Positions 976-63,405 of a DNA stretch of 64,000 nucleotides are shown here, piece by piece. Below the pieces are notes generated by a model that was given only the letters and a program-made list of their open reading frames with translations, was not told where the DNA came from and searched no databases. The stretch is from assembly GCF_001306135.1 (NCBI RefSeq), contig NZ_LGKP01000040.1, forward strand, positions 88,726-152,725, written 5' to 3'. How positions within the stretch are numbered: position 1 is the first letter of the stretch; each line of letters starts with the position of its first letter. Both the position numbers and the translations under genes were made by a program. The stretch comes from Herpetosiphon geysericola. Lineage in GTDB: Bacteria > Chloroflexota > Chloroflexia > Chloroflexales > Herpetosiphonaceae.

Positions 976-1520
976 TCAACATTTGGAGATCGGAACAAAC
1001 GAAACCGCGAAGAGCACGAAGACCGCAAAGGTTGGGAAGCGGGGAAATAAAAAATTAATCAAAACAATCCACAAACTAAATATTTGGGGGTGCTGGGGGC
1101 TGAAAACCCCCGGCGTTTCCCTCCGGCGGAGGGACGGAAGGGTGGCGAAACGATTGCTTGAAGATCGAGTGTTGGCGGTTAGGGATCAGGATTCAGCGAC
1201 AAGGGATTAGAGTTCAGCAACGGCGAAGAGCACGAATATTGTAGTTAAAGAAACATACCAATAATCCAACAAGATCACTTAACGCAGAGGCGCAAAGGAA
1301 ATGTGGCTATTGGCTATTGGCGTTGGGCTTGTGGGAACAGAATCCAAATAATCTGTAGCTACAAAAAATTATCATTCGTACAATTCGTGTAATTCGTGGC
1401 TAAAATAGAGATTTGGCTATAGGTTTTGGGCTAGCAGAAACCAAATCCTAAAAATCTGTGGCTAAAAAAATAATGCTTCGTGTAATTCGTGCAATTCGTG
1501 GCTAAAAAATCTTCGTGGGC
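976..1520. repeat. composite intergenic repeat region, locus A of a dispersed family
   Basis: Motifs gaagagcacgaa, ggctattggctattgg, aatctgtggctaaaaa and ttcgtgcaattcgtgg recur. Reverse-complement copies occur at 48540-48860 and related motifs at 55860-56113. Confidence 0.6.
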
Positions 1521-1523
1521 ACA

Positions 1524-2253
1524 TTAAAGCCACACAGCCTCAATCAATCGAGGCAACACCACATCAGCACTACCCGCCAACGAATAGCTCGCAATCCCAC
1601 GCAACGGCATATCAGGGTTAATTTCAATCACCGTCTTTTTGCGCCGCAACGCTCGATGCGGCAACGAAGCAATTGGCTCAACAATCGCTGATGTGCCAAT
1701 TACCAAAGCCACATCGCTGCGATCAAAGGCATCCTTTGCCGCTTGCAGCATCGCTGCATCCAAATAATTCGCCAAACCACACAATATCTGGGCGCAACGG
1801 CGCACCACAAGCAGGACAAATTGGTTGCTCAACATCCCACGTTTCAACCAAGCGCCGTTCACGCGCGCAAATTGTGCGCGCCAAACTGCCATGCACCTCA
1901 AAAACATTGCCTGAGCCAGCCCGTTGATGCAAACTATCAATATTTTGGGTAAACAGCTTAAAGTCTGGAACCAATTGTTCAAGCTGCGCCACTGCATAAT
2001 GGCCAGCATTTGGTTGCGCCGCTTCGCATTGACGCTTCATCGTTTGATACACCTGAAAAACGCCAAACGGATCGCGCTCAAAGCCCACCAAAGTTGCAAC
2101 CTTATCAGGATCATAGGCTGTCCAACGAGCATCAGCAGCAGCACTACGATAGGTCGGAATTCCGCTTGGTGCTGAAATTCCAGAGCCAGTTAATACAACC
2201 ATTGATTGGGCTTGACGCAAATGGTGGATTAAATCAGCAGCAAATTCACTCAT
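1524..2253 (-). pseudogene. Sir2/CobB-family NAD-dependent protein deacylase with an apparent +1 frameshift near 1765
   Basis: N-terminal part (frame of ORF 1723..2253) has GSGISAPSGIPTYRS, TQNIDSLH, HG, CxxC...CPAC and VWFGE. The C-terminal Sir2 part (DVALVIGTSAIVEPIASLP...) lies in the overlapping ORF 1524..2009, shifted by one nucleotide. Junction is at tggtttggcgaattatttgg. Confidence 0.55.
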
Positions 2254-2622
2254 TGATCAATATCCTCGCAACTCAATTAAAAGCACGCTTGTGCTATTTG
2301 CTACCACAGCGTGTGATAGGAAATAGCATCGAGATAATCAAATTTTATTAACAGTTTATTATTTGCATAATAATTTAGGCCAAAATCTATTGAAATTCGG
2401 CTACGAATGTTTTACTATCACTATGAGACAGATTTATGGATGTAGATGCTCTTTAGCAACGCTTCACTTTTGCATTCGACTACTTGAGCAAATGGGTTGA
2501 ATTTGTGTCTAGCTGTACGTGATTACGATTGCGTGCCGCTATTTTTATGATTTTGCCAATACCCACTGTGGTATTTGCCGATAAACGTCCTATCAATCCT
2601 TCATGCCAAAGGATCGCAGACC

Positions 2623-2931
2623 ATGCAAACCGAACGTGTTAAAAGCCGTGGGGTCTTGCTCAAAGTAGCAAGCCATATAGTCCAATTAGCCGTCATTGTC
2701 CGCGAAGCCGAAGGTATCAACGATAACGATGCCTACATGGTTGCTGAACAAATTATAGATCATGTGAGTGCCTCACATCACGTACCAAGCCAAGATTGCT
2801 GGCCGGTTCAGGTTGTCTGCCGCGCATGGCAGGTGGTTGTACAACATCAACCAAGCTGCCGTTGCCGTGGAGCCGATATGAATACGGTCGCCGATAAATT
2901 GGTTAAACTCGATTGGGTTGCCGTTAACTAA
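2623..2931 (+). CDS. hypothetical small protein, paralogue of island gene 60030..60341
   Basis: RBS aaaggatcg before ATG 2623. Shares IVQLAxIxxExEGIxDNxAYxxAEQ with the 103-aa island protein. AT-rich promoter-like region upstream. Confidence 0.4.
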   Translation: MQTERVKSRGVLLKVASHIVQLAVIVREAEGINDNDAYMVAEQIIDHVSASHHVPSQDCWPVQVVCRAWQVVVQHQPSCRCRGADMNTVADKLVKLDWVAVN

Positions 2932-3027
2932 CTTCGGCTAATTTCCTCAATTATTCCAACTCCATGCCAAAAATCGCCAACATGTGGCTCTATTTCCCGA
3001 TAGCGTTTTGTTACGGGAGGTATCATC

Positions 3028-4080
3028 ATGTTGGCGAAAGTTTGGAGTTGCGCCGTGGTTGGCCTCGATGGCGCGTTAGTCGAAGTCGAAGTTGATCTCA
3101 GTCGTGGTTTGCCGACCTTTACGATTGTAGGCTTGCCCGATACCGCCGTGCAAGAGGCCAAAGAGCGAGTCCGCGCCGCCGTACGCAATAGTGGCGGTTC
3201 CTTTCCGGATAAACGACTAACCGTCAATTTGGCTCCTGCTGATTTACGCAAAGCAGGCCCAGCCTACGATCTGCCAATTGCCGTGGGCATTTTATTGGCT
3301 TCAGGCCAAATCGCTGCCGATGTGAGCCAAGCACTGTTTGTCGGTGAGCTATCGCTTGATGGAGCTTTGCGCCACACCGATGGCATCTTGCCAATGGTCA
3401 CGATTGCCCGCCGCGAAGGCTTGCAAACTGTTTATGTACCACATTGCGATGCCGCTGAAGCCGCTTTGCTTGGCGATATTACGATTATTCCTGTGCGTTC
3501 CATCGTCGAGATTGCTGCCCATCTCAATGGCGAGCGCTATATCGCAGCCTACGAAGGCCAACCACCAGCCCCAGAAAGCCTCAGCTATAGCGTCGATTTT
3601 GCCGATGTCAAAGGCCAAGAACACGTCAAACGTGCTTTAGAAGTTGCTGCTGCTGGTGGTCATAATGTATTGATGAGCGGCCCACCTGGCTCTGGCAAAA
3701 CCTTACTAGCTCGTTGCGTACCTTCGATTTTGCCACCGCTAAGCCTCGACGAAGCCTTGGATGTCACCAAAATTTATTCGGTCAAAGGCCTGTTGCCCAG
3801 CGATCTGCCGTTTATTCGCACTCGCCCATTTCGCTCGCCGCACCATACAATTTCCAATGCTGGCCTCGTTGGTGGTGGCCGCACCCCGCAGCCAGGCGAG
3901 ATTTCGCTGGCCCATCGGGGCGTGCTGTTTCTCGACGAAATGCCGGAATTTAGCCAACAAGTGCTCGAAGTCTTGCGCCAACCACTTGAAGATCATACAG
4001 TGGTGCTCAGTCGCGCCGCAGGCACCTTGGCATTCCCGGCAAACTTTGTGCTAATAGGAGCCATGAACCCTTGTCCGTGT
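3028..4080 (+). pseudogene. comM: comM/yifB-like Mg-chelatase-type AAA+ ATPase, 5' portion truncated by prophage insertion
   Basis: YifB/ComM-like N-terminus, Walker A GPPGSGKT, and ...[26 protein letters not shown], then divergence after 4080. The reading frame runs on into phage DNA to 4179. Confidence 0.8.
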
Positions 4081-5710
4081 CTTGCTCATTCTCACAGAAT
4101 GCCACCGTGCGCATGGTTAGCGCAACCCGTAATTCCCCATCAACTCGCCGAAGTTCTGCATGTTTCACCAGCTTGGTAATAGGATTCCGTAACCGCTCAA
4201 TCACCGTTGGGTCATCAAGCTGCGCAAGAATCCGCGTGGTCAGCATGCCATCAAAGAAGGCGGCACGCAAACTGCGTGCCTGCTCATCAAGCGTCTCAAT
4301 CGCCCGAGTCAGGGTGGTGCGCTGGTCGTCCATCGTTGCCAGCTTCGCTTCCAAGGCCTCGGCTTGGGCATTGATTGCTTGGACCAATGAAGCGGTCAGG
4401 GCATGATGCAGCACCCGTTGGGTGAGGCTGGTAAATTCTGCCTGCACCACAGCGCGCTGGCGCTCGAGGGCTTCAATGCCATGCACGAGGGTTGCTCGGG
4501 TGCGATCAGCGGCAGCGGTCAACTGCTGATCAAAAGCGGCATGCTGGGCTGTTGCATACTGCACTACCGCTTTGACCACAGCCCCCTCAAGGCGATAGGC
4601 GCGAACGCGGGGCATGGTGCATTGTCCTGCATAGGCACCACGGCCATTGCATGCGTAAATCCGATAGTAGTAGCGCTTGCCCTTGCGGTGGGTTCCGCTG
4701 GTGTTGCCGTGAATGAGTAGCCCACATTCCCCACAATGCAGCTTCATCAAGAAAATCCCCCGCGCATTCAGGGCATAGTTAGGGATCGCAAACTCAGCAA
4801 CACGCACCCGCTCAATCAAGTCAGTTGGAATCAGCGGCCCACTGGGGAGTGCTACCTTCAGCACGGTCTTGGCCTGCCCATCGCTCACCTTATTGGTGCG
4901 GTTGTGTTCACGGCCCCATTGCAACTGGCCCGCGTAGATGCCATCAATCGCTTGGCGGCAGATATGGCGAATCGTGCTCATATTCCAAATATTGGTAGGC
5001 TGTGGTTTTACCACATCAATAATGGCCCCTGTGGTAGGGTCAACGCGCTCTTGGGTGGGCTTGGCAATCCATTGCAGCATACCAGGTGTATCAGGGCGGC
5101 CATAGGGTGTTTGCGCGGTATTCAGCAGGCGGGTAATTCGCAGGTAGCCCATCCCTAACCCGCGCTGCTCAAGAATCCACAACAGAATCGGGTAGGTGTC
5201 AGGATTCGGCTTGTAGCCGGTGCCATCAAAGGCAAGACCATAGGGCGCTGCACCACCATAGCGGTGGCCGCGTTCGATGCGGGTCTTCTGGCGGGCATAG
5301 GTGCGTTGCGAGGTGCGACGAATCTCATCAGCGGCTAAGGCCGCTTTGATGTCCCGCATAAAGGAACGGCTATCATCGGTCATGCCTGGCGATTCATCAT
5401 TGAACACAATATCAACGCCCAAGCGCTGCATATCGTGCTCAAATTGCTTCCATGCCATAACATCGCGATGACTGCGGTCAAGTGACTCACAACGAATCCG
5501 TTGAAAGAATCCTGCCGCCGCATCGGCCAGCATTTGCTGGTATTCACTGCGGCGGGTCGTGGTGCCACTCTCGGCTTGGTCAATATAGAGCTTGGTGACG
5601 GTCTCGCCATGCTGATCACTGGCACGGCGCAGGGCATCCAACTGCGATTGCAGCGATGCCCCACGAGTTTGCTGGTCACTACTGTACCGAATGTAGTGCG
5701 CTGTCTTCAT
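4007..5710 (-). CDS. large serine recombinase (phage integrase)
   Basis: N-terminal resolvase catalytic domain (YIRYSSDQQ), a large recombinase domain with a Cys cluster (HCGECG...CNGRG...C) and a C-terminal coiled coil. It sits at the prophage left junction. Confidence 0.85.
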
Positions 5711-5915
5711 AGGCTTGCTCCAGTGCGGCTATTTGGCGCTTGAGTTGTATTTGGCGCGCCGTTGTTAAGGTGGTGGTATGCAGCGCATTATGCGCAATCT
5801 GCATGGCTGCGTCAAGGCCAAGCGCCTGCACCACCAGCACCTCGGCAAGACACGCCAGCGCATCGCTTGGGGCTGGCTCGGGGTCGATAAGAATAGCAAC
5901 AGGTAATTCATCCAT
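5679..5915 (-). CDS. hypothetical small protein (possible recombination directionality factor)
   Basis: 78-aa ORF immediately upstream of the integrase on the same strand. Confidence 0.3.
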   Translation of the reverse strand: MDELPVAILIDPEPAPSDALACLAEVLVVQALGLDAAMQIAHNALHTTTLTTARQIQLKRQIAALEQAYEDSALHSVQ

Positions 5916-5978
5916 GGCAGCTCCTAAGAAACAACAAACCCGCCACGAGGGCGGGTAATCAATAGGTGATGGAAGGTT

Positions 5979-6224
5979 TCAATCAAGCACCCCCAAGCAC
6001 ATTGCAACGAACAATAAGCGCTCACGTCCGTCAAATCGCTCAATATCCATCGCAGCGGTCAAGGGTTGTTCTTCAATTAATTCTTTTGCAACACGATCCC
6101 AAATGGGCTGCCAAAAATCGGTATCGTAGCGCAAGCACCATTTACCGTGAATAATCTCGCGATCGTCATACCACAGGGTTGGCCATCGTGAATCTTGCTT
6201 AAGTTCCCACATGTTCAACCTCAC
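5979..6224 (-). CDS. hypothetical phage protein
   Basis: ORF co-oriented with the early leftward operon. Confidence 0.3.
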   Translation of the reverse strand: MRLNMWELKQDSRWPTLWYDDREIIHGKWCLRYDTDFWQPIWDRVAKELIEEQPLTAAMDIERFDGRERLLFVAMCLGVLD

Positions 6225-6519
6225 TCTCTATTGGCTGCACCTCAAGCAGAATGTCATCCTTGAAAACCTTATAGCAACGATGGACTGAGACTGCCACGAT
6301 AATCACAGGGCGTGCATTACCAAGCGCTGGTGGCCCTTCCTCGGTTGCTAAGCAATCGTAAACATTGCGATGGCCGATAATCATGCCCGTGCGAATCCTA
6401 CCCATGCTTTGGCGTGTGGGCTGTCCATTCAGGCGCGAAACAACCCACTTGAATTTGACCCATTCCCCCAACCCGTAGGGGTCATGTGGTTTGGGCTGTG
6501 CTTTTCTGCCGCGTGCCAT
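6199..6519 (-). CDS. hypothetical phage protein
   Basis: ORF in the leftward operon. Confidence 0.3.
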   Translation of the reverse strand: MARGRKAQPKPHDPYGLGEWVKFKWVVSRLNGQPTRQSMGRIRTGMIIGHRNVYDCLATEEGPPALGNARPVIIVAVSVHRCYKVFKDDILLEVQPIESEVEHVGT

Positions 6520-6528
6520 AGTTACTCC

Positions 6529-7113
6529 TTAGGAAATTCGTTCAAATTTCACAACCCAGACCCACGGGTTGCTATCCCATGATCCTTGGCCATTGATGCG
6601 AATCCAAAGTTCACGAAATGCCGCCGCTGATTCAACCCCTTCGGCTTTTGCGTCGTCGTCACTAATGGATTGCACTCGCTCAACATCAAAATCGACAACC
6701 TTCAAATGGATGCGGCATAGCGCCTTAGGCATATGGATTGAGGGCTTCCACCTTACACCATAAGCCAGTCGCGCCTCTTTGACCCATTCTTTTTCATCCC
6801 CATCTTCATCAACCGCATTGGCAAGGTACGTTGTACCACCATCCCAAACTGCAAACGATTCACGAACCCAGAGCGTATCACCGCGCATTCCATAGGGGCA
6901 TGGGTATTGGCACGCATAATCGCAGTAACTGGGGCAATCATTGGCGTGGACGTGAATAAACTCACCCGTTGGCTCGTAAAATTCAACCGCATCTTGGTCT
7001 TTGATAATGCGGCGGGTTTGCGTTTTCTTGCCATCGAGGATGGCCTTGGCCATCAGTGGGCTAAATAAAATCGGGCGGTCTTTTATTTCTCGCTCATAGT
7101 GAAATTCAATCAT
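6529..7113 (-). CDS. hypothetical phage protein (Cys-rich)
   Basis: 194-aa ORF with CPSYCDYACQYPCPY. Confidence 0.35.
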   Translation of the reverse strand: MIEFHYEREIKDRPILFSPLMAKAILDGKKTQTRRIIKDQDAVEFYEPTGEFIHVHANDCPSYCDYACQYPCPYGMRGDTLWVRESFAVWDGGTTYLANAVDEDGDEKEWVKEARLAYGVRWKPSIHMPKALCRIHLKVVDFDVERVQSISDDDAKAEGVESAAAFRELWIRINGQGSWDSNPWVWVVKFERIS

Positions 7114-7136
7114 CGGTTGCTCCTGTCAGGGTGTTA

Positions 7137-7406
7137 CTAGTGGCCTCGCAATGTTTCAAGCAGCACGCGGGTTTTGCGGCTGCTGTGGTAGGTCATTCGC
7201 CACAGGGTTTGTTGTTGTTCTCCGGTCAGGCGTAGTTGCTTGACCGCGTTGGCCAACAGTTTGGCGGTGATTTTGCATGGTGAGCAATAATGATCCGATG
7301 GCATGGCCTGCTCACCACAGTGCGAACATTGTGTGCCTTTCATAACTACTCCTAGGTTGGTTGGTTGTCGTTCTATTTGGGGCTTGCGCAGTGCTGGCAG
7401 AGCCAA
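7137..7406 (-). CDS. zinc-ribbon small protein
   Basis: CSHCGEQ...CSPC. Confidence 0.3.
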   Translation of the reverse strand: MALPALRKPQIERQPTNLGVVMKGTQCSHCGEQAMPSDHYCSPCKITAKLLANAVKQLRLTGEQQQTLWRMTYHSSRKTRVLLETLRGH

Positions 7407-7594
7407 CGCTGGCGATCGATATTAAAGGTATTGGCTGGCTGACCGCAGGTGCAATGCGGTTGTTTTGGTTGCCCTGGGCGTGGTTGATATAAGGCAGCAA
7501 CGCGCTTCGCTTGCAATTGTTCACGTGGCATCAAGCGCAGCTCACGATCAAACTGGGCTTGGCGTAGCATTGGGGTGTAATCAGGATCGTTCAT
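7373..7594 (-). CDS. zinc-ribbon small protein
   Basis: CTCGQP...CQHC. Confidence 0.3.
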   Translation of the reverse strand: MNDPDYTPMLRQAQFDRELRLMPREQLQAKRVAALYQPRPGQPKQPHCTCGQPANTFNIDRQRWLCQHCASPK

Positions 7595-7597
7595 TGG

Positions 7598-7951
7598 TTA
7601 GACCTCTAGGGCTAGTTGGAATGCCGGTTGCTTAGTGGTTGATTGCTTAACTTTCTTCACGGACACAGGCTTGGTTATCATGAGATGACAACAGGTGCAG
7701 TAGCCATTGAAGCGCTCAAGTACATCTTGGTGATCAATTGGGCAGACCGTTTGTGCTTCAAGTGGGGCGGCTGTGCGCAATTCACTCCACCAGTGCCAAT
7801 AGAGTTTGTGGCCATGCGCATCTCGTAGCATGCGGTCGATTTTGACGATATGCTCAGGTGGTAGATGTTTTTGGCACAGCGCACGAAATTGCATTGCCGG
7901 CTCACGATGCAATTCACGCCATGCCTGATAGCGTTCATGGAAGCTGCTCAT
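7598..7951 (-). CDS. hypothetical phage protein
   Basis: 117-aa ORF with CxxC-like CTCCH. Confidence 0.3.
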   Translation of the reverse strand: MSSFHERYQAWRELHREPAMQFRALCQKHLPPEHIVKIDRMLRDAHGHKLYWHWWSELRTAAPLEAQTVCPIDHQDVLERFNGYCTCCHLMITKPVSVKKVKQSTTKQPAFQLALEV

Positions 7952-7959
7952 CGCTACTC

Positions 7960-8175
7960 CTAGGTTGGTTGGTGCTTATCGCTCAGGCGTTTGCTGATGT
8001 CGATGGCGGCTTGCCGCTCGGTTTCGGTTGCGGGTCTGGTGAGGAGTGTATAGACCAACTTGTTGAGGTATTGTTCCGCTTCAACATAGGTTGGCTTGCG
8101 GTCTCGCAATTCGCCATCAAGGTAGCACAGGAAGTCTTGTGCCGTGCGGTCATAGACAATCATTTTGCGGTACAA
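7960..8175 (-). CDS. hypothetical phage protein
   Basis: 71-aa ORF. Confidence 0.3.
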   Translation of the reverse strand: MYRKMIVYDRTAQDFLCYLDGELRDRKPTYVEAEQYLNKLVYTLLTRPATETERQAAIDISKRLSDKHQPT

Positions 8176-8192
8176 CGGTTGCTCCTCTTAGA

Positions 8193-8564
8193 TTAGATAA
8201 CTTCCAAGACAATCTCCGTGCGGGGCCACGCCACATCAACGCCGCCACGCTTGCTTGAGACCTCATCCACAGCACGATCATTGAAGCCGAGCGCTTCAAA
8301 CAGCGCATCTTCAGCAACCTTGATGCGATTCGACATATCGCTTACGGTGCAGCTGCGCTTGTCTTTGAAGTAGTGGGTCAAGCGCAGGCTATAGCGGGCA
8401 TTGGCTGGCGGCGTAAACGCAGTGGCCGCATCGCGAATCAGCGGCACGGCGCGGTTTTTGAAGGCCGTCAATTCCTTGCTTGGGAAGCGACGGCCTGTTT
8501 TGCGGTTGGTGGCGTAGGCGTTGTTCAGGCTTGGGCTAAGGGGAATAACAATCATTAGTTTCAT
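8193..8564 (-). CDS. rusA: RusA-family Holliday junction resolvase
   Basis: IVIPLSPSLNNAY and DMSNRIKVAEDAL match the RusA signatures (PxxNxxY; DxDNxxKxxxDAL). Start taken at MKLMIV. Confidence 0.65.
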   Translation of the reverse strand: MKLMIVIPLSPSLNNAYATNRKTGRRFPSKELTAFKNRAVPLIRDAATAFTPPANARYSLRLTHYFKDKRSCTVSDMSNRIKVAEDALFEALGFNDRAVDEVSSKRGGVDVAWPRTEIVLEVI

Positions 8565-9547
8565 GCAGCACCTTGTAAGCACCAACCCAAGTCAGCCTTG
8601 GGCGGCGCACTCATTGGCCATTGATAGAGCGTCACGGGTTGATGCAGGGCAAGCAGTTGGTTGGCAATCTTTGGCCCTGCTGGCTCGGGTGGTGTTGGGA
8701 TACGGGGTATCTTGCCCTCAGCAACGCGCTGGTGCATCGTCGTGCGCCATTGGCCAAGCAGGGTGCGGTACATCGCTCCGCTGGCCTGCCCTGCTAAATC
8801 GTTATCAAGCCACACAATCACGCGCTTGGGCTGTGAGGCGGCGATCAATTCACACCAGCGGGTCAGATTCTCACCAGCCCACGCCACACCACCCGAGGCA
8901 ACCGCAACCACATCAGGGCGGTCTTGCATCGCAATGATGGCATCGACTAGGTTTTCACCGATGATCACGGTCTTGCCAGGTGCGAGGTATTCGGCGTTGT
9001 ATAAGACATCCTTGCGGCTGCCGCCACTGGTGAGCCACTTCGCATCGGTATCCTCGGGTAAGTAAGCCCGCCCATGCAGCGCCACCAGCTGGCCGGATTC
9101 AAACACGGGCACAATCAAGCGCGGCATCTGGCAGCGGCTCGCTGGCAACACGCCCACGCCTAAGCGCCACTGGGCGATACTGCGTAGGTTGAGCGGTTTG
9201 TAGGCCTGCCACAGCGGTACACGGTTCAGGTCTGCCCCAAAGCGCCCAAGGTAGAAATCGGCATGCTTGAGCCAATTGGCATGCTTGTGCTTGGGCTGCA
9301 TCGCCTTGGCTTGCTGCCGTTCGGTTGTGGGCCCAGTAGCAACGCCAAGGTAACGGGCAAGGTGGGCGATACTGCCCGTGTGTTGGCAGACGAAACATTT
9401 GTAGCGCCATTCGCCATCCGCGTTGTAGCAGGAAAAATGGGTTTGCCCGCGCTTGGTGTCCTTGCCGCAAAACGGGCAGCAGGCATGCCATTCATTGCGC
9501 TGCCAGTGGCCGATGGGTAACAGATCAGGTGGGGTGATCATCGCCAC
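8561..9547 (-). CDS. phage DNA primase (CHC2 zinc finger plus Toprim)
   Basis: CPFCGKDTKRGQTHFSCYNADGEWRYKCFVC zinc finger, and a Toprim-like acidic region (GENLVDAI...WLDNDLAGQ). Confidence 0.7.
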   Translation of the reverse strand: MAMITPPDLLPIGHWQRNEWHACCPFCGKDTKRGQTHFSCYNADGEWRYKCFVCQHTGSIAHLARYLGVATGPTTERQQAKAMQPKHKHANWLKHADFYLGRFGADLNRVPLWQAYKPLNLRSIAQWRLGVGVLPASRCQMPRLIVPVFESGQLVALHGRAYLPEDTDAKWLTSGGSRKDVLYNAEYLAPGKTVIIGENLVDAIIAMQDRPDVVAVASGGVAWAGENLTRWCELIAASQPKRVIVWLDNDLAGQASGAMYRTLLGQWRTTMHQRVAEGKIPRIPTPPEPAGPKIANQLLALHQPVTLYQWPMSAPPKADLGWCLQGAA

Positions 9548-11223
9548 ATCCCAACGCGCTCAAGCGCTTCTCGGGTTTGGTAGTAGGTGATCAGCGTAGC
9601 CGCATCACCTTTTGATAGGAGTTGCCACTTGATCTTGTCGCCACTGCCTCGGGCCAAACGGCGTAGGTATTTGATTTGGCCTTCACTCGCCGGCTGATGC
9701 TTCCAACTCGCCGTCTTCAGCATGAGGTTTCGCGCCCCACGTTCTTCGGCATACTGGTTGGCAACCTCGGCTAACTCGCCAAAGTTTTCAGCACTGGCCA
9801 ACTGCTTGGCTGACCAGTCCCACGTGCCCTTGGGTTTCATCAAGCCAAACAGTTTGAAGGGATCGGTCATCATCGGCGGCGTGATTGCCAAGATGCGTTC
9901 ATACCCATCGCCACCCTCACCCAAGCCAAGAATCATCCACCCGTCGCGCCGTTCCCAGTGTAATGCTGTGCCCTTCAAGTAATCAATTTGGCGGGCGACG
10001 AGTTCGAGCGGATTACCTTCAAGGCCGTGGACATCTTGGCCATCAAAGGACATGCCGCCAATAACATCGCCCTCTTCGGCTTCGTCAGCGGCTTGACGTG
10101 ATGCTTCAATCACCTCGCGTGGTAAGCCAAGCACATCGCCCAGGCTGGCCAAGTTATGGCCGCTACTTGGTGCAAATTCCAAGACTAGGCAATCATCTTT
10201 GCCAGGCGCGGTGCGCAGCCCACGACCCACACACTGCACAAACAGCGAACGATTCACGGTAGGCCGCACCATCATGACACAGCCAATGTCTGGCTGGTCG
10301 AAGCCTTCAGTCAAGACTGCGCAATTCGTCAGCACCATGTATTCGCCGCGGCTAAACGCTGCCAAGATGCGGCGGCGTTCCTCTTTTGGGGTGGTGCCAT
10401 CGATCGCGATCGCGGTGATCCCGCGTTTGGTGAACGCTGCGGCTAAGTCGTGCGCCCCTTCAACAGACACCGTAAAGGCAATCGACTTGCGTCCCTGGGC
10501 GTATTTGATATAGCTATCGACCACCAGCTCAAACACGTTGGATAGTTCAAACACATGCTTGAGTTGACCAGCATTCAGGTCGTTGCCCGTTTTCCGCACG
10601 CCCTTCAAGCTCGTGCGGGTGGCAAGCTCTAAGCTTTTGAAGGGGACTAAATACCCTTCACGCACCAAATAGCCAATGTCGATGGCAAAGCTATTTTTCT
10701 GGTACACGGTAATCAGGCCGATGTCATCAGCCCGCTGCGGGGTTGCCGTCACCCCCATGTGGCGCAGGTTGGGATTCGCTTTCTTCAGCGCTTGGTACAA
10801 TTCCATGTAGCTGTCAGCGGTGGCATGGTGGCATTCGTCGATCGCAAGATAATCAATCGGGCCATAGTGGAGTAAGGTTTGCAGCCGCTTGGCGTGCAAC
10901 GATTGCACCGTGGCGATCACCATTTGCCGATGCGGTTGGTTTTCCTCAGCCTTCACGATGCCAACATTGGGCAGCCAATGCTTCCAATAGCTGGCAATCC
11001 GTTCATAGGGCTGGCGGATTAACTCTTCACGGTGGGCAATGAGTAAACCGCGCTTGCCATCGACCAGCACGGGGGGAATATCTGCATGGCCCAACATCGT
11101 GCTGAGCATGATTTGGGTTTTGCCTGCACCCGTGGCCGCAACCCCAAGCACATCGGTTGCACCGTCTTGCCAGTCCTTCTGCACTGAGGTGACGGATTCA
11201 ATTTGATAGAGTCGTAATTGCAT
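9538..11223 (-). CDS. superfamily-2 DEAD/DEAH-box DNA helicase
   Basis: Walker A ATGAGKTQ, DECHH, TATP and QCVGRGLR motifs. Confidence 0.7.
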   Translation of the reverse strand: MQLRLYQIESVTSVQKDWQDGATDVLGVAATGAGKTQIMLSTMLGHADIPPVLVDGKRGLLIAHREELIRQPYERIASYWKHWLPNVGIVKAEENQPHRQMVIATVQSLHAKRLQTLLHYGPIDYLAIDECHHATADSYMELYQALKKANPNLRHMGVTATPQRADDIGLITVYQKNSFAIDIGYLVREGYLVPFKSLELATRTSLKGVRKTGNDLNAGQLKHVFELSNVFELVVDSYIKYAQGRKSIAFTVSVEGAHDLAAAFTKRGITAIAIDGTTPKEERRRILAAFSRGEYMVLTNCAVLTEGFDQPDIGCVMMVRPTVNRSLFVQCVGRGLRTAPGKDDCLVLEFAPSSGHNLASLGDVLGLPREVIEASRQAADEAEEGDVIGGMSFDGQDVHGLEGNPLELVARQIDYLKGTALHWERRDGWMILGLGEGGDGYERILAITPPMMTDPFKLFGLMKPKGTWDWSAKQLASAENFGELAEVANQYAEERGARNLMLKTASWKHQPASEGQIKYLRRLARGSGDKIKWQLLSKGDAATLITYYQTREALERVGMWR

Positions 11224-17515: not shown

Positions 17516-17770
17516 TTGAGGCTAATTGCAATGAGTTTTCAAGACGTAAGACCGTTTACCTTTGGTGAGTTCATCAAGTTCCGCCGTGAGCAACTTGGGA
17601 TTAGTCAATCACAGATTGCGCGTAAATTAGAGGTGTCAGAGCGTCAGTACCGAAACTGGGAGTCTGATAAATTCAAACCAAACCTTGATAGTTTATTGCC
17701 ATTATTGCGTGCTCTTAATTTGCGACTACAGGATATAGAATCGGTTCTCGAATCAGAATCGACAAGTTAG
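17516..17770 (+). CDS. XRE-family HTH regulator (Cro/CI-like), paralogue 1 of 3
   Basis: FGEFIKFRREQLGISQSQIARKLEVSERQYRNWES. Confidence 0.7.
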   Translation: MRLIAMSFQDVRPFTFGEFIKFRREQLGISQSQIARKLEVSERQYRNWESDKFKPNLDSLLPLLRALNLRLQDIESVLESESTS

Positions 17771-17848: not shown

Positions 17849-18097
17849 GTGTATCTAGGGGATGGTATGAAAACATTTGGGGAACAATTGCGCTATCGTC
17901 GCCAACAACTTGGCTTTACCCAAGAACAAATAGCACGTAAATTAGATGTTACGGTGCGACAATATTGCCGATGGGAGACCGGAGAAACAAAAATATCAGT
18001 GTATTACCTTGCTAAATGGATTGAATTATCTGGCACGGCTTACGAAGACATTCATGAATCCCTTTTGCTTTATGGCGAAAGTGAGAAGCTGCAATGA
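17849..18097 (+). CDS. XRE-family HTH regulator, paralogue 2 of 3
   Basis: FGEQLRYRRQQLGFTQEQIARKLDVTVRQYCRWETG. Confidence 0.7.
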   Translation: MYLGDGMKTFGEQLRYRRQQLGFTQEQIARKLDVTVRQYCRWETGETKISVYYLAKWIELSGTAYEDIHESLLLYGESEKLQ

Positions 18098-20985: not shown

Positions 20986-21699
20986 ATGGCTCTCGTGATT
21001 CAAGATTTCCGCGCATCCTTGCCCCGCGCTACCTGGTCAATTGGGACGCGCATTGGCAAACCATGGTATGTGACGTTGCACTACAACGGGCCAATGGTCA
21101 AAAACCGCACACCAGCTGGTGAACGCGCGCAGTTGATTTTTGATGCCGAGTATCACATGGGGCCATACCTGAATGCTGACGGTCTTCAATATCACGGCGC
21201 TGGCTTGAGTGATGGTGCTGTTTTGCAATGTCGATCGTGGGATGACATCCTGTGGCACTGTGGTCATCGGCTTGGCAATGCCCAGTCACTTGCCTATCAC
21301 CTGCCACTTGGTGGCAACCAAGACGCAACAGATGCCCAATGGACAAGCGCGATTGCCTTCTTTGAATGGTCAATGGCGATGTGGGGCATTCCGCGCAGCA
21401 ATGTACGCGGCCATTGGGAATGGAATGGCAGCGCTTGCCCAGGCCCACACTTGAAACGTCGCTTGTTAGCGTGGCGCAATAACCGGCTCGGTCGCTATGA
21501 AGTTATTACGAGTGATGGGGCTAATGTTCGCCAAGCACCCACGACTGCCGCCAAAATCGCCGTGGTCTATCCACGCGGTCATCAATTCGATGTTGATTCT
21601 ATTACGCGGGGTCAAACCATCGCTGGCCAAAATGAATGGCTACATAGTGCCGATGGTCGTGGCTTCGTTCATCCTACAACCGTGCGAAAGGTAACCTAG
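20986..21699 (+). CDS. endolysin: N-acetylmuramoyl-L-alanine amidase (amidase_2/PGRP) with a C-terminal SH3-like binding domain
   Basis: TLHYNG, HCGH and HWEWNGSACPG are PGRP-type zinc-amidase signatures. C-terminal YEVITSDGANVRQAPTTAAKIAVVYPRGHQFDV is an SH3b-like segment. Confidence 0.75.
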   Translation: MALVIQDFRASLPRATWSIGTRIGKPWYVTLHYNGPMVKNRTPAGERAQLIFDAEYHMGPYLNADGLQYHGAGLSDGAVLQCRSWDDILWHCGHRLGNAQSLAYHLPLGGNQDATDAQWTSAIAFFEWSMAMWGIPRSNVRGHWEWNGSACPGPHLKRRLLAWRNNRLGRYEVITSDGANVRQAPTTAAKIAVVYPRGHQFDVDSITRGQTIAGQNEWLHSADGRGFVHPTTVRKVT

Positions 21700-21701: not shown

Positions 21702-22031
21702 ATGAGTATTGTTCAACTTGCTGGTGTGTTGGCGTTGGTCGTGGTGATTGTGGTGGCGGTGGCGTTAGTCAATGCGTTTGCCCCAAAGGCTGCCGAGGCT
21801 TTCAAGGGTTGGGCTGATGCGCATTTGGGTGCTGAACAGCGTGAGGCGATTTATGGTGCGGTCAAGGCTGGCCTTCGGGCTGCCGAGCAGCATGGTTTTC
21901 GTGCTGATGAGTTGTTTGCTAAGGCGGCCAAAGTGGCCAGTGAGTATCTCAAGACCTATGGCCTTCCAATCAGCGAAGAGCTGTTGAGTGAATTGGTGCG
22001 AGCTGAAAAGCAGAAGAAATTAACTGAGTGA
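21702..22031 (+). CDS. lysis-associated membrane protein (holin/spanin-like)
   Basis: N-terminal TM LAGVLALVVVIVVAVALV and a basic C-terminus; follows the endolysin. Confidence 0.35.
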   Translation: MSIVQLAGVLALVVVIVVAVALVNAFAPKAAEAFKGWADAHLGAEQREAIYGAVKAGLRAAEQHGFRADELFAKAAKVASEYLKTYGLPISEELLSELVRAEKQKKLTE

Positions 22032-22144: not shown

Positions 22145-22546
22145 GTGCAAGGGTGGCAGGGTATGGCAGCAACACGTGGTGGTCGTCGCCCAGGGGCAGG
22201 CCGCAAAACAAAAACAGAGAAATATGCACGTCCGATCAATAAGGCTGAAAAGCAAATTGTTGATCACCTGCCACAACTCATCACCAATATGTTGACGCTG
22301 GCCAGCGGGGTCACGGTCGAAGAGGTTGATATCACCGATGGCACCGTGCTGGTGTACAAGAAGCCCCCCGATCGCAAGGCCAATGAATATCTCATTGATC
22401 GAATCCTTGGCAAGCCTACGGTGCATGTGGAGGACAACACCGAGCACGAGCGACGGCTCCCACCTGACCTTGATGCCATGATTGACCAGGTGTATGGAGC
22501 TGGCGATGGTGATACCACCGAAGGCGAGTCACAAACGGTTTGTTGA
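22145..22546 (+). CDS. putative terminase small subunit / DNA-binding protein
   Basis: Basic RGGRRPGAGRKTK N-terminus; directly upstream of TerL. Confidence 0.45.
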   Translation: MQGWQGMAATRGGRRPGAGRKTKTEKYARPINKAEKQIVDHLPQLITNMLTLASGVTVEEVDITDGTVLVYKKPPDRKANEYLIDRILGKPTVHVEDNTEHERRLPPDLDAMIDQVYGAGDGDTTEGESQTVC

Positions 22547-23888
22547 AGCAGCAAAGTGCGCGGGTGTGCCGCGTGATCAACTCACCAACTTCTTACGCCT
22601 TGGCTGCATTATGCAGCCCCGCCAGCTTGCTGCCAGCGCTGCGGCTCGACGCTGTGATGCGCCTGATGGCCCAACCGAGCTTGGCTATGGTGGCGCACGG
22701 GGTGGTGGCAAAAGTCACTGGTTGCTTGGCCAATTAGCAGAAGACTGTTTACGGTACCCGGGACTCAAGTGTCTGTTGTTACGCAAGGTCGGGAAAGCCC
22801 TTGCTGAAGCATTCTTCGATTTACTGCCCAAGGTCATGGGTGGCATTCATGGGCAATACACCTATGTACCGTCCAACAGCACCCTGACCTTTGCCAACGG
22901 GTCGCGCATCATTATTGGCCACTTCCAAAAGGAAAGCGATATTGATGCCTACCTTGGGCTTGAGTATGACGTGATTGGCGTTGAAGAAGCCACCACGTTG
23001 ACCGCCCAAAAGTATGTTGATATTCGCACCTGCTGCCGCTCCAGTAAACCCAATTGGCGGCCACGGACATACTCAACAACGAATCCGGGCAACATCGGGC
23101 ACGCGTGGTACAAGGAACGATTCATTACCAATCGGGATGCAGATCGCGTTTTTATTCCGGCCACGGCTGATGATAATGCCTTCAATAATCCTGAGTATCG
23201 CGCAATCTTGGACAGTCTTACGGGGTGGCGGTTACGGGCATGGCGCTATGGCGATTGGGATATTGCCGCTGGCCAATTCTTTACCAACTTTCGCCGTGAG
23301 CTGCACGTTATCAAACCGTTTGTTATCCCTGATGACTGGACGGTCTGGGGTGCAATGGACTATGGGTTTCATCACTACACCATGGCCTACCTACTTGCCG
23401 AAGATGGCGATGGCAACATCTATCACGTTGCTGAGCATGGGGAGCGTGGGTGGTTGATTCCCGACAATGCTGCCAGTATCAATGCCATGTTCGAACGGCA
23501 TGGGGTGACTGCAAATCGGTTGAAAACGTTTGTTGCTGGGACGGATGTGTTTGCCAAGAAAGAAGATGGCATCACCATCGCTGACAAATATCGCGCTCAT
23601 AGCATTGTGCTGAAGCCAGCAACAACCAATCGGATCAATGGCGCAGCGGAGTATCTGGCACGACTAGGCAACCCTGATGCAGGCCGAGCACCACGCATGT
23701 TTATGTTCGATACCTGCACACGATTGATTAACTGTATTCCATCGCTGCAAGTTGATCCCAATCGCCCAGAGGATGTGCGCAAGGTCAATGTTGATGATGA
23801 TGGCCGGGGTGGTGATGACCCGTATGACGCATCACGGTACGGAATTATGGCGGCCACAACGGCCAACTTAATGTGGAGCTTCGGCTAA
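22482..23888 (+). CDS. terL: terminase large subunit
   Basis: Walker A GYGGARGGGKSHW, ATPase domain, and a C-terminal RNaseH-like nuclease region (DYGFHHYTMAYLLAEDGDGNIYHVAEH). Start may be internal (for example 22611). Confidence 0.85.
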   Translation: MTRCMELAMVIPPKASHKRFVEAAKCAGVPRDQLTNFLRLGCIMQPRQLAASAAARRCDAPDGPTELGYGGARGGGKSHWLLGQLAEDCLRYPGLKCLLLRKVGKALAEAFFDLLPKVMGGIHGQYTYVPSNSTLTFANGSRIIIGHFQKESDIDAYLGLEYDVIGVEEATTLTAQKYVDIRTCCRSSKPNWRPRTYSTTNPGNIGHAWYKERFITNRDADRVFIPATADDNAFNNPEYRAILDSLTGWRLRAWRYGDWDIAAGQFFTNFRRELHVIKPFVIPDDWTVWGAMDYGFHHYTMAYLLAEDGDGNIYHVAEHGERGWLIPDNAASINAMFERHGVTANRLKTFVAGTDVFAKKEDGITIADKYRAHSIVLKPATTNRINGAAEYLARLGNPDAGRAPRMFMFDTCTRLINCIPSLQVDPNRPEDVRKVNVDDDGRGGDDPYDASRYGIMAATTANLMWSFG

Positions 23889-25921
23889 TGGGATTACTAG
23901 ACCAACTGCGCAACTTACTTGGCATCAAGGCTACACCAGCCGTGGGGGAGTTTTACCCCATGGAGCGGAGCAGTGGCGGTGGCATGATCCCAACCTATCC
24001 CATGACCTTCCCAGGCTGGACGGATATGGGCGCGGATGGTGCGAATCCGCCCAAGCTTACGCCGGAGGCCCGTGCTCGGCTGGCCATGCAATCAGCCTGG
24101 GTGTTTAGCAATGTGCAAGTGATTGCGCAGGAATTGACCACCGCAACGCTGCGGGTTAGTGAAGCGTTGAGCAATACCGAAGAGCCACAACAGGTCATCA
24201 ATCATGCGTTCGAGTTGCTGTGGAATACTCCCAATCCGTTCTTTAGCCGATCGCTCTTGATGCAAGTTTGGGCATGGTTTCTGTGCCTCAAAGGTGAAGC
24301 CTATCTTTACTTTGCGCCCGATGCCAGCAATGGCGATCTGATTGAAATCTGGCCCTTGCCAGCGTGGGCATGCCGTCCCGTGCCACACCCAACCAACTTC
24401 ATCGAAAAATATGCCTTGCAACTGCGACCAGATGCCAAGCCCATCTACATTGATGCGGCCTACATCTGTTATAGCCGGCTGCCCAATCCGTTTGATCTGC
24501 GCCGTGGCTTATCCCCACTCGAAGCAGCCAGCTTGGCCCTGCAAACCGACGATGCGCAGAAGCGATGGAATTGGCGGTTTTTTGACAAAGAAAATGCCAT
24601 GCCAACCAACGTCGTGAGCTTGCCACAGGAGACCAGCAACACCGACTTTGAACGCTTCCGTGCTGAGTTGTTCGACTTCTATGGGTCAGGCCAACGGCGC
24701 ACGATGGTGGCGCGGGGTGGGCAGATTGATTTCAAGGCCTTAGCGGTGAGCCAGCGGGAAATGGATTTCATCACTTCACGCAGCTTTACCCGTGATGAGA
24801 TTGACCGTGCGTTTGGCTTTCCCGGTGGCTACTGGACAGCCAACGCCACTGAGGCTAACCAACGCGGTGCGAAGGCCGTGGTCATTGAAAACGCGGTCTG
24901 GCCCAAGGCTGTGCTGCTGGCTGAAGACTTGACCACGCAGATTGTGCGCTTGTGGTATGGGCCAACGTATCGCGCCAGCTTCGATGATATCCGGCCACGC
25001 AATATTGAGTTGGATATTCGCGAGCGCCAAGCAAACGAAAGCACATGGACAGTCAACGAACTGCGCGAAGCCCAAGGTAAAGCGCCGCTCGACGACAACC
25101 CACTATGGGACACCGTGCCTGCGAAGGTCGCCTTGCAAAGCTATACCGTGAAGTCTGCCGAGCCTGCTGAACCTGAAGAGCAAGCCGAGCCAGTAGCACG
25201 AGAAGACAGCCTTGAGGATACCGATGAGGTTGAAGACCAGCAGGAGCCAGAGGAAGCCAAGGCCTATAAGAGCCGCTTGCTGCCCTATGAAGAGGCCTTA
25301 GCCAAGGCGTTGCACCCGTTGTTTGGCGCAATGACCAAGCAGATCGTCACGGCGATCACGGCAGGCGAAACCATGAACTGGGATCTGCTGTCGCTCCAAC
25401 TGGGCACTGCGATGCATCCCGAATTGGTAAAGCATGCTATCTCAGGAATTATGGCGCTCACCGAGGAATTTGGCATTGCCATTGACCTACCCCAGGTCAC
25501 GATCGGGCTGAATGCATGGGCTGATTCTGAAGTGCCGCAATTACTCGAGCGGATTCTCAAGCCAGCCAAAGACTTGGTAGAGCAAGTGACGCGGCGCTAT
25601 CAGGTCACGCCGGGCATGACCCGTGGGCAACTTGAAACGGCCTTGAGCAGCTTAGCAGCACCTTATCGGGTTGAAATGGTAACCGTGAACGCAATCACGA
25701 AATCAGCATCACGGGCCACGCTGGAGTATCAATCGATCTTGGCTGGCTTTGAAATCAAGACCAAGCGCATTTGGCGCACGAGCAATGATGACAAGGTATG
25801 CAGAGTTTGCAGCCCGATGAACGGTAAGCCGGAAGAAGACTGGAAGGATCGCTTTCCTGCTGGCCCAGGCGCACACGACTTCTGCCGTTGCTTCACGACG
25901 CTGAAGGTGGTGCAGGAATGA
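23873..25921 (+). CDS. portal protein fused to a C-terminal Mu-F/SPP1-gp7-like head-morphogenesis domain
   Basis: HK97-type portal blocks (LSPLEAASLALQTDDAQKRWNWRFF...ISQREMDFITSRSFTRDEIDRAFGFP). Acidic linker, then VCRVCSP...HDFCRC, characteristic of Mu-F-like domains. Confidence 0.7.
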   Translation: MELRLMGLLDQLRNLLGIKATPAVGEFYPMERSSGGGMIPTYPMTFPGWTDMGADGANPPKLTPEARARLAMQSAWVFSNVQVIAQELTTATLRVSEALSNTEEPQQVINHAFELLWNTPNPFFSRSLLMQVWAWFLCLKGEAYLYFAPDASNGDLIEIWPLPAWACRPVPHPTNFIEKYALQLRPDAKPIYIDAAYICYSRLPNPFDLRRGLSPLEAASLALQTDDAQKRWNWRFFDKENAMPTNVVSLPQETSNTDFERFRAELFDFYGSGQRRTMVARGGQIDFKALAVSQREMDFITSRSFTRDEIDRAFGFPGGYWTANATEANQRGAKAVVIENAVWPKAVLLAEDLTTQIVRLWYGPTYRASFDDIRPRNIELDIRERQANESTWTVNELREAQGKAPLDDNPLWDTVPAKVALQSYTVKSAEPAEPEEQAEPVAREDSLEDTDEVEDQQEPEEAKAYKSRLLPYEEALAKALHPLFGAMTKQIVTAITAGETMNWDLLSLQLGTAMHPELVKHAISGIMALTEEFGIAIDLPQVTIGLNAWADSEVPQLLERILKPAKDLVEQVTRRYQVTPGMTRGQLETALSSLAAPYRVEMVTVNAITKSASRATLEYQSILAGFEIKTKRIWRTSNDDKVCRVCSPMNGKPEEDWKDRFPAGPGAHDFCRCFTTLKVVQE

Positions 25922-29017: not shown

Positions 29018-29599
29018 ATGGCCTACGCAACAAAAGATGAGTTTCGCGCTTATAAGCTTCAACCCAATGGTGGCACAACACCGATTCCAACCACCGATGA
29101 CCTGCTGATCACGCGTTTGCTTGGCGTGGCCCAAGCAGAGATTGATCTGTATTGTCACCGTTCGTTTGAGGCCGTGACCACCACGCGCTTTTATGATGAA
29201 GCCAATGCGCGGATGGTGGGCCAGCGCTTATACCTTGATACCGAGTTGTTGACCGTGACCAGCCTCATGAATGGTGATGGGCGGGAGATCCCGTTGACTG
29301 GCTTCCGATTGGAGCCGCGCAACGAACCGCCCTACACCATGATCACGCTCAAATCATCGTGGGTCTGGTTTCTGAACCTTGATGCTGAAATCGCGATCAC
29401 GGGTACTTGGGGCTACAGCGCGACAGCACCAGCGCCGATTCAACAGGCCACGCTTGAGTTGACTGCCTACTTGTATGACCTGCGCAAGCAGCAAAACTAC
29501 GATGTCACGGCGATGCCAGAGCTGGGCCAAGTCGTGATTCCAGGGGGCATGCCCAAGCACGTCAAGAACTTGATGGCTGAATACCGGAGGAAATGGTAG
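29018..29599 (+). CDS. putative head-tail connector/adaptor protein
   Basis: Synteny only. Confidence 0.35.
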   Translation: MAYATKDEFRAYKLQPNGGTTPIPTTDDLLITRLLGVAQAEIDLYCHRSFEAVTTTRFYDEANARMVGQRLYLDTELLTVTSLMNGDGREIPLTGFRLEPRNEPPYTMITLKSSWVWFLNLDAEIAITGTWGYSATAPAPIQQATLELTAYLYDLRKQQNYDVTAMPELGQVVIPGGMPKHVKNLMAEYRRKW

Positions 29600-31888: not shown

Positions 31889-32073
31889 TTGGCTGGTTAG
31901 AAGGCTATGAAGATGAGCCGCCGCTCTGGGTGATTTATGCGCTGATGGCGGAGGACTATCACACCACGCCATGGCAGATTGAAGCAGAGGCTTCAGCGCT
32001 GTGGGTTGCACGCTGGCGCACGTTGAATTTTGAGCGATCACAGTATCGGAAACGGCAGGCAGGCGATGAGTGA
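31864..32073 (+). CDS. -1 frameshift extension of the tail assembly chaperone (gpGT-like product)
   Basis: Heptamer C_CCA_AAC (31864-31870) sits in the 0 frame of the chaperone. The -1 frame is open from 31831 to the stop at 32071-32073 and overlaps the TMP start. Confidence 0.4.
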   Translation, partial: PKLERRQLIGWLEGYEDEPPLWVIYALMAEDYHTTPWQIEAEASALWVARWRTLNFERSQYRKRQAGDE

Positions 32074-39360: not shown

Positions 39361-39417
39361 AATTCCTCCAGGGGCGAGGTGAAGATTGGTAATCTATCCT
39401 ATCATGCACGTCAAGCT

Positions 39418-39467
39418 AAATAGTGATGCAGCCCTAGCCAATCACGGCTAGGGCTGCATCACTATTT
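39418..39467. promoter_or_regulatory. 22-bp perfect inverted repeat with a 6-nt loop
   Basis: aaatagtgatgcagccctagcc-aatcac-ggctagggctgcatcactattt overlaps the MTase stop codon. No T-tract follows, so it may be a protein-binding or recombination site rather than a simple terminator. Confidence 0.5.
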
Positions 39468-43339: not shown

Positions 43340-43428
43340 TGGGTTGATGGTTGGTCTATTCCTTGCTAACTAGGTTGATCGTCCCACAGGTATTTTGTCT
43401 GTGAGAATTAGGGTATACACGTCCTTGT

Positions 43429-48425: not shown

Positions 48426-48448
48426 ATAGGTTGATGTTTCACTCAACG

Positions 48449-57557: not shown

Positions 57558-57578
57558 CTTTCTTTTACAAATTGATAA

Positions 57579-63400: not shown

Positions 63401-63405
63401 TTATA

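Follow-up and report, generated by a model that had tools for sequence, protein, structure and literature searches.

The gene comM (yifB) of Herpetosiphon geysericola, a member of the Chloroflexota, is split by a 39.3-kb prophage. This temperate tailed phage was very probably put into the gene by its own large serine recombinase, acting on the phage attachment site (attP) and on the stretch of comM which encodes the NPCxCG motif. Both the gene and the prophage lie in a stretch of 64,000 nucleotides (nt) of contig NZ_LGKP01000040.1 (assembly GCF_001306135.1, positions 88,726 to 152,725), which is called the window in the following and to which all coordinates refer. The element is a clean but ordinary example of a common class of comM-targeting elements. 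It leaves the current understanding unchanged: comM-type genes are already the top reported target of site-specific serine integrases.

The interrupted comM gene

On the plus strand the comM frame is colinear with ComM/YifB proteins up to base 4080, and the residues encoded beyond this base (LAHSHRMPP and onwards to the stop) are unrelated to them. The 5' fragment (3028–4080, codons 1–351) encodes the ChlI domain and the first half of the Mg_chelatase domain. Its open reading frame (ORF; 3028–4179) reads through into phage DNA up to a stop codon at 4177–4179, with a predicted product of 383 amino acids (aa). The frame is picked up again at 43429, where RPC on the phage side is followed by GYFSDPTRQC (restart sequence GYFSDPTRQCVCPP). 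According to the translation and to Pfam, the 3' fragment (43429–43890, plus strand, codons 352–504 and the stop at 43888–43890) carries the second cysteine pair, the LLDRID segment and the Mg_chelatase_C domain.

Fusion of 3028–4080 and 43429–43890 in silico gives 1515 nt, that is 504 codons and a stop. The rejoined protein matches the NCBIfam profile TIGR00368 (YifB) with 607.8 bits (cut-off 362.4) over profile positions 1–499 of 499 and comprises the three Pfam domains ChlI, Mg_chelatase and Mg_chelatase_C. The Mg_chelatase match (residues 190–396) runs unbroken over the joint at residue 351/352, and the alignment to the solved ComM structure 8rxd (E 9e-131) is free of gaps at this place. 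Furthermore, the motif NPCxCG, in which the joint is located, is present in all of the 120 closest ComM homologues, 109 of which have NPCPCG. The split is clean: not a single base was gained or lost, and excision in silico restores the exact reading frame.

The gene is broken after the sensor-1 region (AMN) and within a cluster of four cysteines (CPC...CVC); the LLDRID segment and the C-terminal lid domain are encoded downstream of the break. Because the break separates the sensor-1 region from the half with the arginine finger and the lid, the read-through product of 383 aa is not expected to work as an AAA+ helicase, and in the integrated state the cell would be left without a functional ComM helicase.

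Empty sites in sister species

In a protein search the rejoined ComM was 98 % identical to a 504-aa protein of H. llansteffanensis and 95 % identical to its counterpart in H. gulosus. Both species have an intact, insert-free comM with conserved neighbours: SIR2 precedes it, and an ABC transporter and Lon follow. By blastn, positions 3379–6053 of the H. llansteffanensis sequence align to 1413–4080 of the window and positions 6048–11113 to 43423–48488. The two flanks of the window abut on the empty site with an overlap of just 6 nt (4075–4080 and 43423–43428). The nucleotide identity is 92 % up to 4080 and 94 % from 43423 onward, which agrees with the published average nucleotide identity of 91 % between H. 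geysericola and H. llansteffanensis (PMC6210107). An earlier sequence-only reading of the window had claimed that a prophage splits comM at 4080/43429 and that integration was precise and without deletion. The former is borne out by the end-to-end match of the joined product to TIGR00368, the latter by the 1515-nt join together with the abutting flanks; and the comM genes of prophage-free relatives, which that reading had proposed as a check, are intact in both species and do not end at 4080. A scan of genome contigs with the rejoined ComM was flooded by the universal MNPCPCGY pattern and contained only relatives of at most 65 % identity.

The motif codons of the sister species are TGC CCT TGT and TGC CCA TGT. 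The first cysteine codon of NPCPCG, which is aligned to 4072–4074 of the window, is TGC and not TGT in both prophage-free sisters (loci L081 and L082).

Attachment sites and crossover

The insert comprises 39,348 base pairs (bp; 4081–43428). A common core is found at both of its junctions, GTCCGTGT at 4073–4080 in the left attachment site (attL) and GTCCTTGT at 43421–43428 in the right one (attR); attL reads AACCCTTGTCCGTGT up to the junction and CTTGCTC behind it, attR TATACACGTCCTTGT followed by GGCTATT. The shared block GTCC(G/T)TGT is identical in 7 of 8 positions, with an empirical chance of 5.6e-4 at fixed register; the sequence-only reading had counted a similarity of 9 nt, which is one too many.

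Fusion of the two prophage ends creates an inverted repeat with perfectly matching arms of 11 bp; it spans 49 bp, which is the usual size of an attP of serine integrases. The P arm (TCTGTGAGAAT, 43398–43408) is the perfect complement of the P' arm (ATTCTCACAGA, 4088–4098), and the repeat is absent unless the ends are joined. No more than four other repeats of equal quality are present in the 64 kb, all of them local hairpins, and 0.3 are expected from shuffled sequences. The repeat lends independent weight to the boundaries of the insert. A 49-bp attP, inverted half-sites and an exchange without target duplication are what is found, as for the attachment sites of serine integrases. Two further candidates were at chance level and were dropped, namely a P' arm motif CAC-GA-T common to the window and a related metagenomic contig (L083, see below; 9 of 28 matches) and an imperfect 14-nt inverted repeat over attL (4022–4035/4097–4110).

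The in-silico host site (attB) reads GCCATGAACCCTTGTCC(G/T)TGTGGCTATTTTAGC, and attP reads GGGTATACACGTCC(G/T)TGTCTTGCTCATTCTCACAG. With G in attP and T in attB the crossover would be located in GTCC, with T in attP and G in attB in TGT; the predicted attP variants are ACACGTCCGTGTCTTGC for a crossover at GT or TC and ACACGTCCTTGTCTTGC for a crossover in TGT. The sequence of the sites alone does not fix the position, because both placements give the same attL and attR and because CCG and CCT both encode proline. Any crossover dinucleotide in GTCC or TGT therefore restores NPCPCGY alike.

The centre of symmetry of attP is T43422, equivalent to T4074, inside GTCC and 6 bp to the left of the point 'tgt/c' that the sequence-only reading had chosen. 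In addition, TGTCCGTG is present in all three readable junctions of the attL type, namely those of the window, of L083 and of an Acetoanaerobium prophage, and TGT CCG TGN in just 6 of 82 intact comM genes. This pattern is expected if the crossover is on the left, because CCGTG would then be derived from the phage. The codons of the sister species match the T of attR and not the G of attL. On account of the symmetry centre, of TGTCCGTG at all attL junctions in spite of its rarity in intact comM, and of the sister-species codons, a crossover at GT or TC in 4073–4075 (equivalent to 43421–43423) is somewhat favoured over one at TGT (4078–4080). The motif GTCC(G/T)TGT of the sequence-only reading thus stands, and its placement of the crossover at 'tgt' probably does not. 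If GT is the crossover dinucleotide, the sites of H. llansteffanensis and H. gulosus would be incompatible with the phage, and the synonymous codon TGC would make a host refractory.

Taken together, the following course of integration is proposed. The phage serine recombinase, the gene of which lies at the left end of the prophage and converges on comM, would have recombined an attP of about 49 bp, consisting of 11-bp inverted arms around GTCC(G/T)TGT, with an attB in comM which comprises the Cys-Pro-Cys codons of the invariant NPCxCG motif. Enzymes of this type cut both strands with a 2-bp stagger, then rotate the half-sites and seal them again, and for this reason no base would be gained or lost. 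Excision, for which a phage directionality factor is required, would give back the exact comM sequence.

The integrase

The integrase gene (int) is located on the minus strand at 4007–5710 and encodes 567 aa in its prophage form. The Pfam domain Resolvase (PF00239) covers residues 4–149 (E 2.2e-23, 83 bits, cut-off 23.3) and includes the motif Y-I-R-Y-S10-S-D-Q-Q, the nucleophilic serine of which is kept in all full-length homologues of the alignment (A1). The domain Zn_ribbon_recom (PF13408; E 6e-9) follows at residues 323–382, with C326, C329, C354 and C364 invariant in the same alignment. An AlphaFold model with eight homologues as input (mean pLDDT 76) has two long helices (390–435 and 440–486), which form a coiled coil. 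In the Protein Data Bank it is most similar to complete serine integrases in complex with att sites (9dxd, 9y66 and that of PhiC31, 9rah), with which it aligns over about 590 columns, and it also matches the C-terminal domains of a Listeria integrase (4kis); the E-values of these matches range from 2e-18 to 4e-10. Due to the resolvase and Zn-ribbon domains, the coiled coil and the fold matches to full-length integrases, int is classified as a large serine recombinase, with predicted catalytic activity, in line with the serine recombinase that the sequence-only reading had suggested.

The protein is 100 % identical to a 'recombinase family protein' of H. geysericola, its sole close protein match, and shares about 23 % identity with GenBank phage integrases. 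Of 1.84 billion cluster representatives just 15 were found as homologues at E<=1e-30, the best with 39 % identity, and by sequence the protein is an outlier among the large serine recombinases. Of the NCBIfam profiles, XisF (69 bits, cut-off 375) is matched best and CcrB is matched as well, both far under their cut-offs. Immediately upstream of int and overlapping it lies an ORF of 78 aa (5679–5915, minus strand). It has no Pfam match, and it is 43 % identical (E 4e-10) to a 77-aa ORF at the equivalent place in L083 (5753–5986); it may be an accessory or directionality factor or a regulator.

The reading frame of int extends over attL, and its last 24 codons (4007–4081) are antisense comM. In the excised form the native 3' end would be supplied from the other end of the prophage (43370–43428, minus strand, stop at 43370–43372), with the tail KDVYTLILTDKIPVGRST and 562 aa in total. 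A terminator-like hairpin found in a consensus scan, a perfect 12-bp palindrome followed by a T-rich tail (43318–43341, minus strand), starts 29 nt downstream of this stop and would be sensible as an int terminator solely after excision. Integration parts int from its own last 19 codons and this terminator, and the split transcription unit faces the comM promoter in the lysogen. For the swapped tail (residues 538–567) disorder is predicted, and its sequence is not conserved; the protein itself is thus probably unaffected. Scans for promoters and terminators around int gave counts no higher than in shuffled sequence, and no int promoter is claimed.

In L083 and in the Acetoanaerobium prophage the int ORF likewise crosses the junction in the identical frame (Thr-Asp from ACG GAC), for which the chance of coincidence among the three is about 1 in 9. 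The crossing could be a regulatory device or a by-product of an attP at the end of int. We regard it as rather doubtful that the location of attP within the 3' end of int serves the comM-targeting serine integrases as a device which controls the integrase according to the state of integration. If this were true, the proper integrase would be made only from the circular form, while the integrated form would have antisense comM facing the comM promoter in place of its tail and terminator. The integration-dependent immunity of some mycobacteriophages is a comparable kind of control.

Recurrence of comM targeting

The closest homologue of int (P0122, 39 % identity) is encoded on three independent contigs (L083, L084 and L085), which come from an NCBI metagenome-assembled genome, a JGI metagenome and a Logan assembly; L083 (DAOTUS010000173.1) belongs to the Herpetosiphonaceae. 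In all three the integrase gene converges on and overlaps a 5' fragment of comM; L083 and L084 contain the whole fragment, and in L085 it is truncated where the contig ends. The fragments are 82 % identical to the window over residues 1–350 (L083, L084) and 89 % over residues 198–350 (L085), and the homology ends at residue 350 in each case. The junction of L083 reads ATG AAC CCC TGT CCG TG and is followed by GACTGACC. Apart from int and the small ORF upstream (43 % identity), this element does not resemble the prophage of the window. The genes for two integrases of 36–38 % identity (P0123 and P0125) are not adjacent to comM, and of five loci found in a metagenome scan with the integrase alignment the three new ones (L090–L092) have no comM nearby. 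Within the clade of this integrase, targeting of comM is thus seen, as far as these sequences go, solely for the window and the P0122 group.

A tblastn search of GenBank phage records with ComM led to the Acetoanaerobium phage ANDSL2_ph1 (PP197248.1). Its comM fragment corresponds to residues 169–351 and ends with AAMNPCPC, encoded by CCA TGT CCG TGT and followed by GTGTAA. It overlaps a converging gene for a serine integrase of 546 aa, 20 % identical to int of the window (E 2e-12). Within the region L098 (15550–17710) the 'complete genome' holds a host comM fragment of 186 aa, and the left boundary of the record is imprecise. The record was made by cutting out of the host genome the prophage region to which particle-protected DNA mapped, and by rotating it so that the terminase gene comes first; the paper is silent on integration into comM (PMC11253131). 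Since the record was cut in this way, the comM piece is a flank of the host and the prophage an active one. In IMG/VR the relatives of the ANDSL2 integrase are prophage cuts which end at int and hence have no attP. The stretch of comM which encodes NPCPCG is a landing site in both Chloroflexota and Bacillota.

A search with the C-terminal 153 aa of ComM retrieved many short ORFs. Among the best 120 matches (P0271–P0390) about 26 have an N-terminus unrelated to ComM fused before PCPCG, such as MLPSGGNIKSSFCYYPCPCG (43 member sequences) or, in a Herpetosiphonaceae genome, MLFGLYPCPCG. The DNA next to the junction is alike between contigs with such fusions (GTTTTGTNNTTNT followed by CCCTGCCC), in a register which differs from YTR/PCG of the window; one junction (P0334) resembles attR of the window. 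Upstream genes at five of these loci (L093–L097) are heterogeneous, with a response regulator and metabolic genes in one and transposases (IS66, ISL3, rve) in others. Judging from these fusions, other element families appear to split the NPCPCG motif across the Chloroflexota.

Alternative explanations

Several points weigh against the proposed integration. The inverted arms of attP are 12 and 13 bp away from the GT centre and their symmetry is therefore imperfect; attB has no significant symmetry under dinucleotide-centred scoring, in which arms of 22 bp are uninformative. The codon pattern at the attL junctions would be explained equally well by an integrase which merely requires TGTCCGTG in the host site. 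With regard to the proteins, the match of int to the Pfam domain Recombinase (PF07508, residues 170–300) is under the threshold (17.5 bits, cut-off 21.1), and no directionality factor was recognised in the prophage. In IMG/VR neither the integrase search nor an exact search for the attP pattern returned a close relative. Finally, both excision and current activity of this prophage are only presumed.

The most serious alternative is a domesticated or defective prophage which no longer excises, so that comM would be permanently inactive and the junctions the fossil of a single event. The element is carried by one genome, as the protein search returned only the window's own protein; it lacks a free-phage relative in IMG/VR as well as a recognised directionality factor, and int is without its native 3' end and terminator when integrated. 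However, the long phage ORFs are intact (terminase 468, portal 682, capsid 708, tape measure 1073 and integrase 567 aa), both att half-sites are intact and form the perfect 11-bp inverted repeat on joining, and the halves of comM are undecayed, free of frameshifts and 98 % identical in amino acids to an intact orthologue. Moreover, the Acetoanaerobium prophage at the same codon spontaneously releases particles (PMC11253131). We hold a defective prophage to be fairly unlikely, while giving it real weight. The exact reading frame that excision would give, the repeated targeting of the same codon by other elements and the fact that the best NCBIfam match of int, although far under its cut-off (69 versus 375 bits), is the developmental excision recombinase XisF could also be read as signs of a regulatory switch ('active lysogeny'), in which conditional excision gives back comM, and with it the capacity to recombine incoming DNA, while the cell survives. 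Regulated excision is without support here, and natural competence of Herpetosiphon is undocumented in the literature found. In the published view insertions into comM disable transformation in order to protect the element (PMC4774983; PMC10083194, supplementary note), and a conserved, dispensable single-copy gene is simply a safe landing site. A switch is accordingly improbable in our opinion, and any effect of the prophage on natural transformation is a matter of speculation.

Insertion by another agent, be it a Tn7-like transposon, a tyrosine integrase or a mis-join of the assembly, would be in line with the best-known comM insertions, which are Tn7-like AbaR islands (PMC11472951), and with the tyrosine integrase gene in the window (61025–62056). 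Yet the latter lies 17 kb outside the insert, a target-site duplication is missing, and there are no transposases among the insert ORFs scanned. The gene which abuts the junction, and whose own ORF crosses it, is that of the serine recombinase. Both flanks are colinear to the base with two other genomes, and the arrangement of integrase and comM repeats in independent assemblies. The chance that another agent was at work is negligible in our view. Site-specific integration of the phage by its own serine recombinase is the explanation which we prefer.

Prophage content and neighbouring island

The insert has a GC content of 52.4 %, compared with 50.1 % in the flanks. Upstream of int, on the minus strand, genes for a RusA-like resolvase (8193–8585, PHROG phrog_34), a primase (8561–9547, phrog_47) and a helicase (9538–11223, phrog_16, E 3e-84) are found. 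Two regulators of the Cro/CI type with helix-turn-helix (HTH) motifs (17516–17770 and 17849–18097, plus strand; Pfam HTH_3, E 2e-12 and 2e-10) are located where the direction of transcription switches. On the plus strand there follow an N-acetylmuramoyl-L-alanine amidase as putative endolysin (20986–21699, Pfam Amidase_2, E 4e-11) and a weak holin-like ORF (21702–22031, Phage_holin_6_1, E 5.5e-3, under the cut-off). The morphogenesis genes on the same strand encode the terminase large subunit (22482–23888, 468 aa, phrog_2), the portal (23873–25921, 682 aa, phrog_2662), the major head protein (26374–28500, 708 aa, phrog_10), a head-tail adaptor (29018–29599, phrog_442), a minor tail protein (30388–31374, phrog_290) and the tape measure (32030–35251, 1073 aa, phrog_3779). 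The major head protein is unusually long and its match to the capsid family begins only at residue 160; its N-terminus may be a fusion, for example with a scaffold or protease-like segment. Among the leftward-transcribed genes at the right prophage end lies a C-5 cytosine DNA methyltransferase (39466–41007, minus strand, 513 aa, Pfam DNA_methylase, E 1.7e-27), with a long perfect hairpin directly downstream (39413–39472).

All long ORFs of the prophage are intact; no tRNA gene was found within the insert and no transposase gene among its ORFs scanned with PHROG and Pfam. Genes for terminase, portal, capsid, tail, lysis, regulators and integrase are united in one insert bounded by att sites, as in a tailed-phage prophage. 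By its gene content the insert is a complete-looking genome of a temperate tailed phage (Caudoviricetes). To our knowledge few phages are known for the Chloroflexota. The sole earlier mention of a Herpetosiphon prophage found in a literature search is an 'incomplete prophage' in H. llansteffanensis, and the present element appears to be the first delimited and apparently complete prophage of the genus. Moreover, the divergent large serine integrase and its predicted attP and attB could be developed into a tool for the genetics of these predatory bacteria, which are poorly tractable.

Further downstream in the window two tandem genes for tRNA-Asn (57482–57654) are followed by a stretch of 36–43 % GC with a double-HTH regulator (58580–59008). 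Next to the tyrosine integrase gene (61025–62056) the GC content falls abruptly from about 55 % to about 25 % at about position 62050 and remains low up to the end of the window; this low-GC stretch holds an ATPase ORF of the AAA_15/AAA_21 type (OLD/AbiEii-like, 62105–63400). The region 58000–64000 looks like a separate integrated island, possibly with defence genes.

Comparison with known systems

Genes which are split by a serine recombinase and restored by precise excision are also known from the comK prophage of Listeria (A118/phi10403S-like), from SPbeta (spsM), from the skin element (sigK) and from the fdxN element (XisF). These elements are regulated switches in infection, sporulation or heterocyst formation, and their target genes differ from comM.

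Durrant et al. (2022) predicted the attachment sites of large serine recombinases, thousands in number, and found Mg-chelatase/comM homologs to be the most enriched target (12.4 % of the predicted site-specific serine integrases, in many distant clusters) and competence functions to be the most enriched pathway among the targets (PMC10083194). In these elements, too, a large serine recombinase at the end of the element splits a gene of the ComM/YifB type, whereas the host of the present one is a Chloroflexota isolate and its integrase an outlier (best identity 39 %). The sr1WO phages of Wolbachia likewise integrate into the Mg chelatase gene by means of a large serine recombinase (PMC9203015). 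They are temperate tailed phages as well, with the halves of the host gene on either side of the prophage, but their host is an alphaproteobacterial endosymbiont and there is no detectable close relationship between the integrases. The statement of the sequence-only reading that comM-targeting elements with serine integrases are known elsewhere is thus confirmed by the literature (PMC9203015; PMC10083194).

The prophage ANDSL2_ph1 of Acetoanaerobium uses the same comM codon with the core TGTCCGTGT, and its int crosses the junction in the same frame as that of the window. However, its host belongs to the Bacillota and has a GC content of 32 %, its integrase is no closer to that of the window than other phage serine integrases, and the remainder of the two elements is unrelated. 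Its activity was shown by particle-protected DNA (PMC11253131).

In Proteobacteria various elements are inserted into comM, which is read as a means of blocking their curing by transformation (PMC4774983; PMC12378983; PMC11472951); disruption of comM is thus already interpreted as a strategy against element loss. The role of ComM in transformation was worked out in diderm model species (PMC12378983). The insertions comprise AbaR/Tn7-like islands in Acinetobacter and integrase-bearing elements in Aggregatibacter, Mannheimia, Francisella and Pseudomonas. AbaR elements transpose, in contrast to the conservative site-specific recombination proposed for the element of the window, and in the Acinetobacter records seen ComM is broken near residue 283, compared with residue 351 in Herpetosiphon geysericola.

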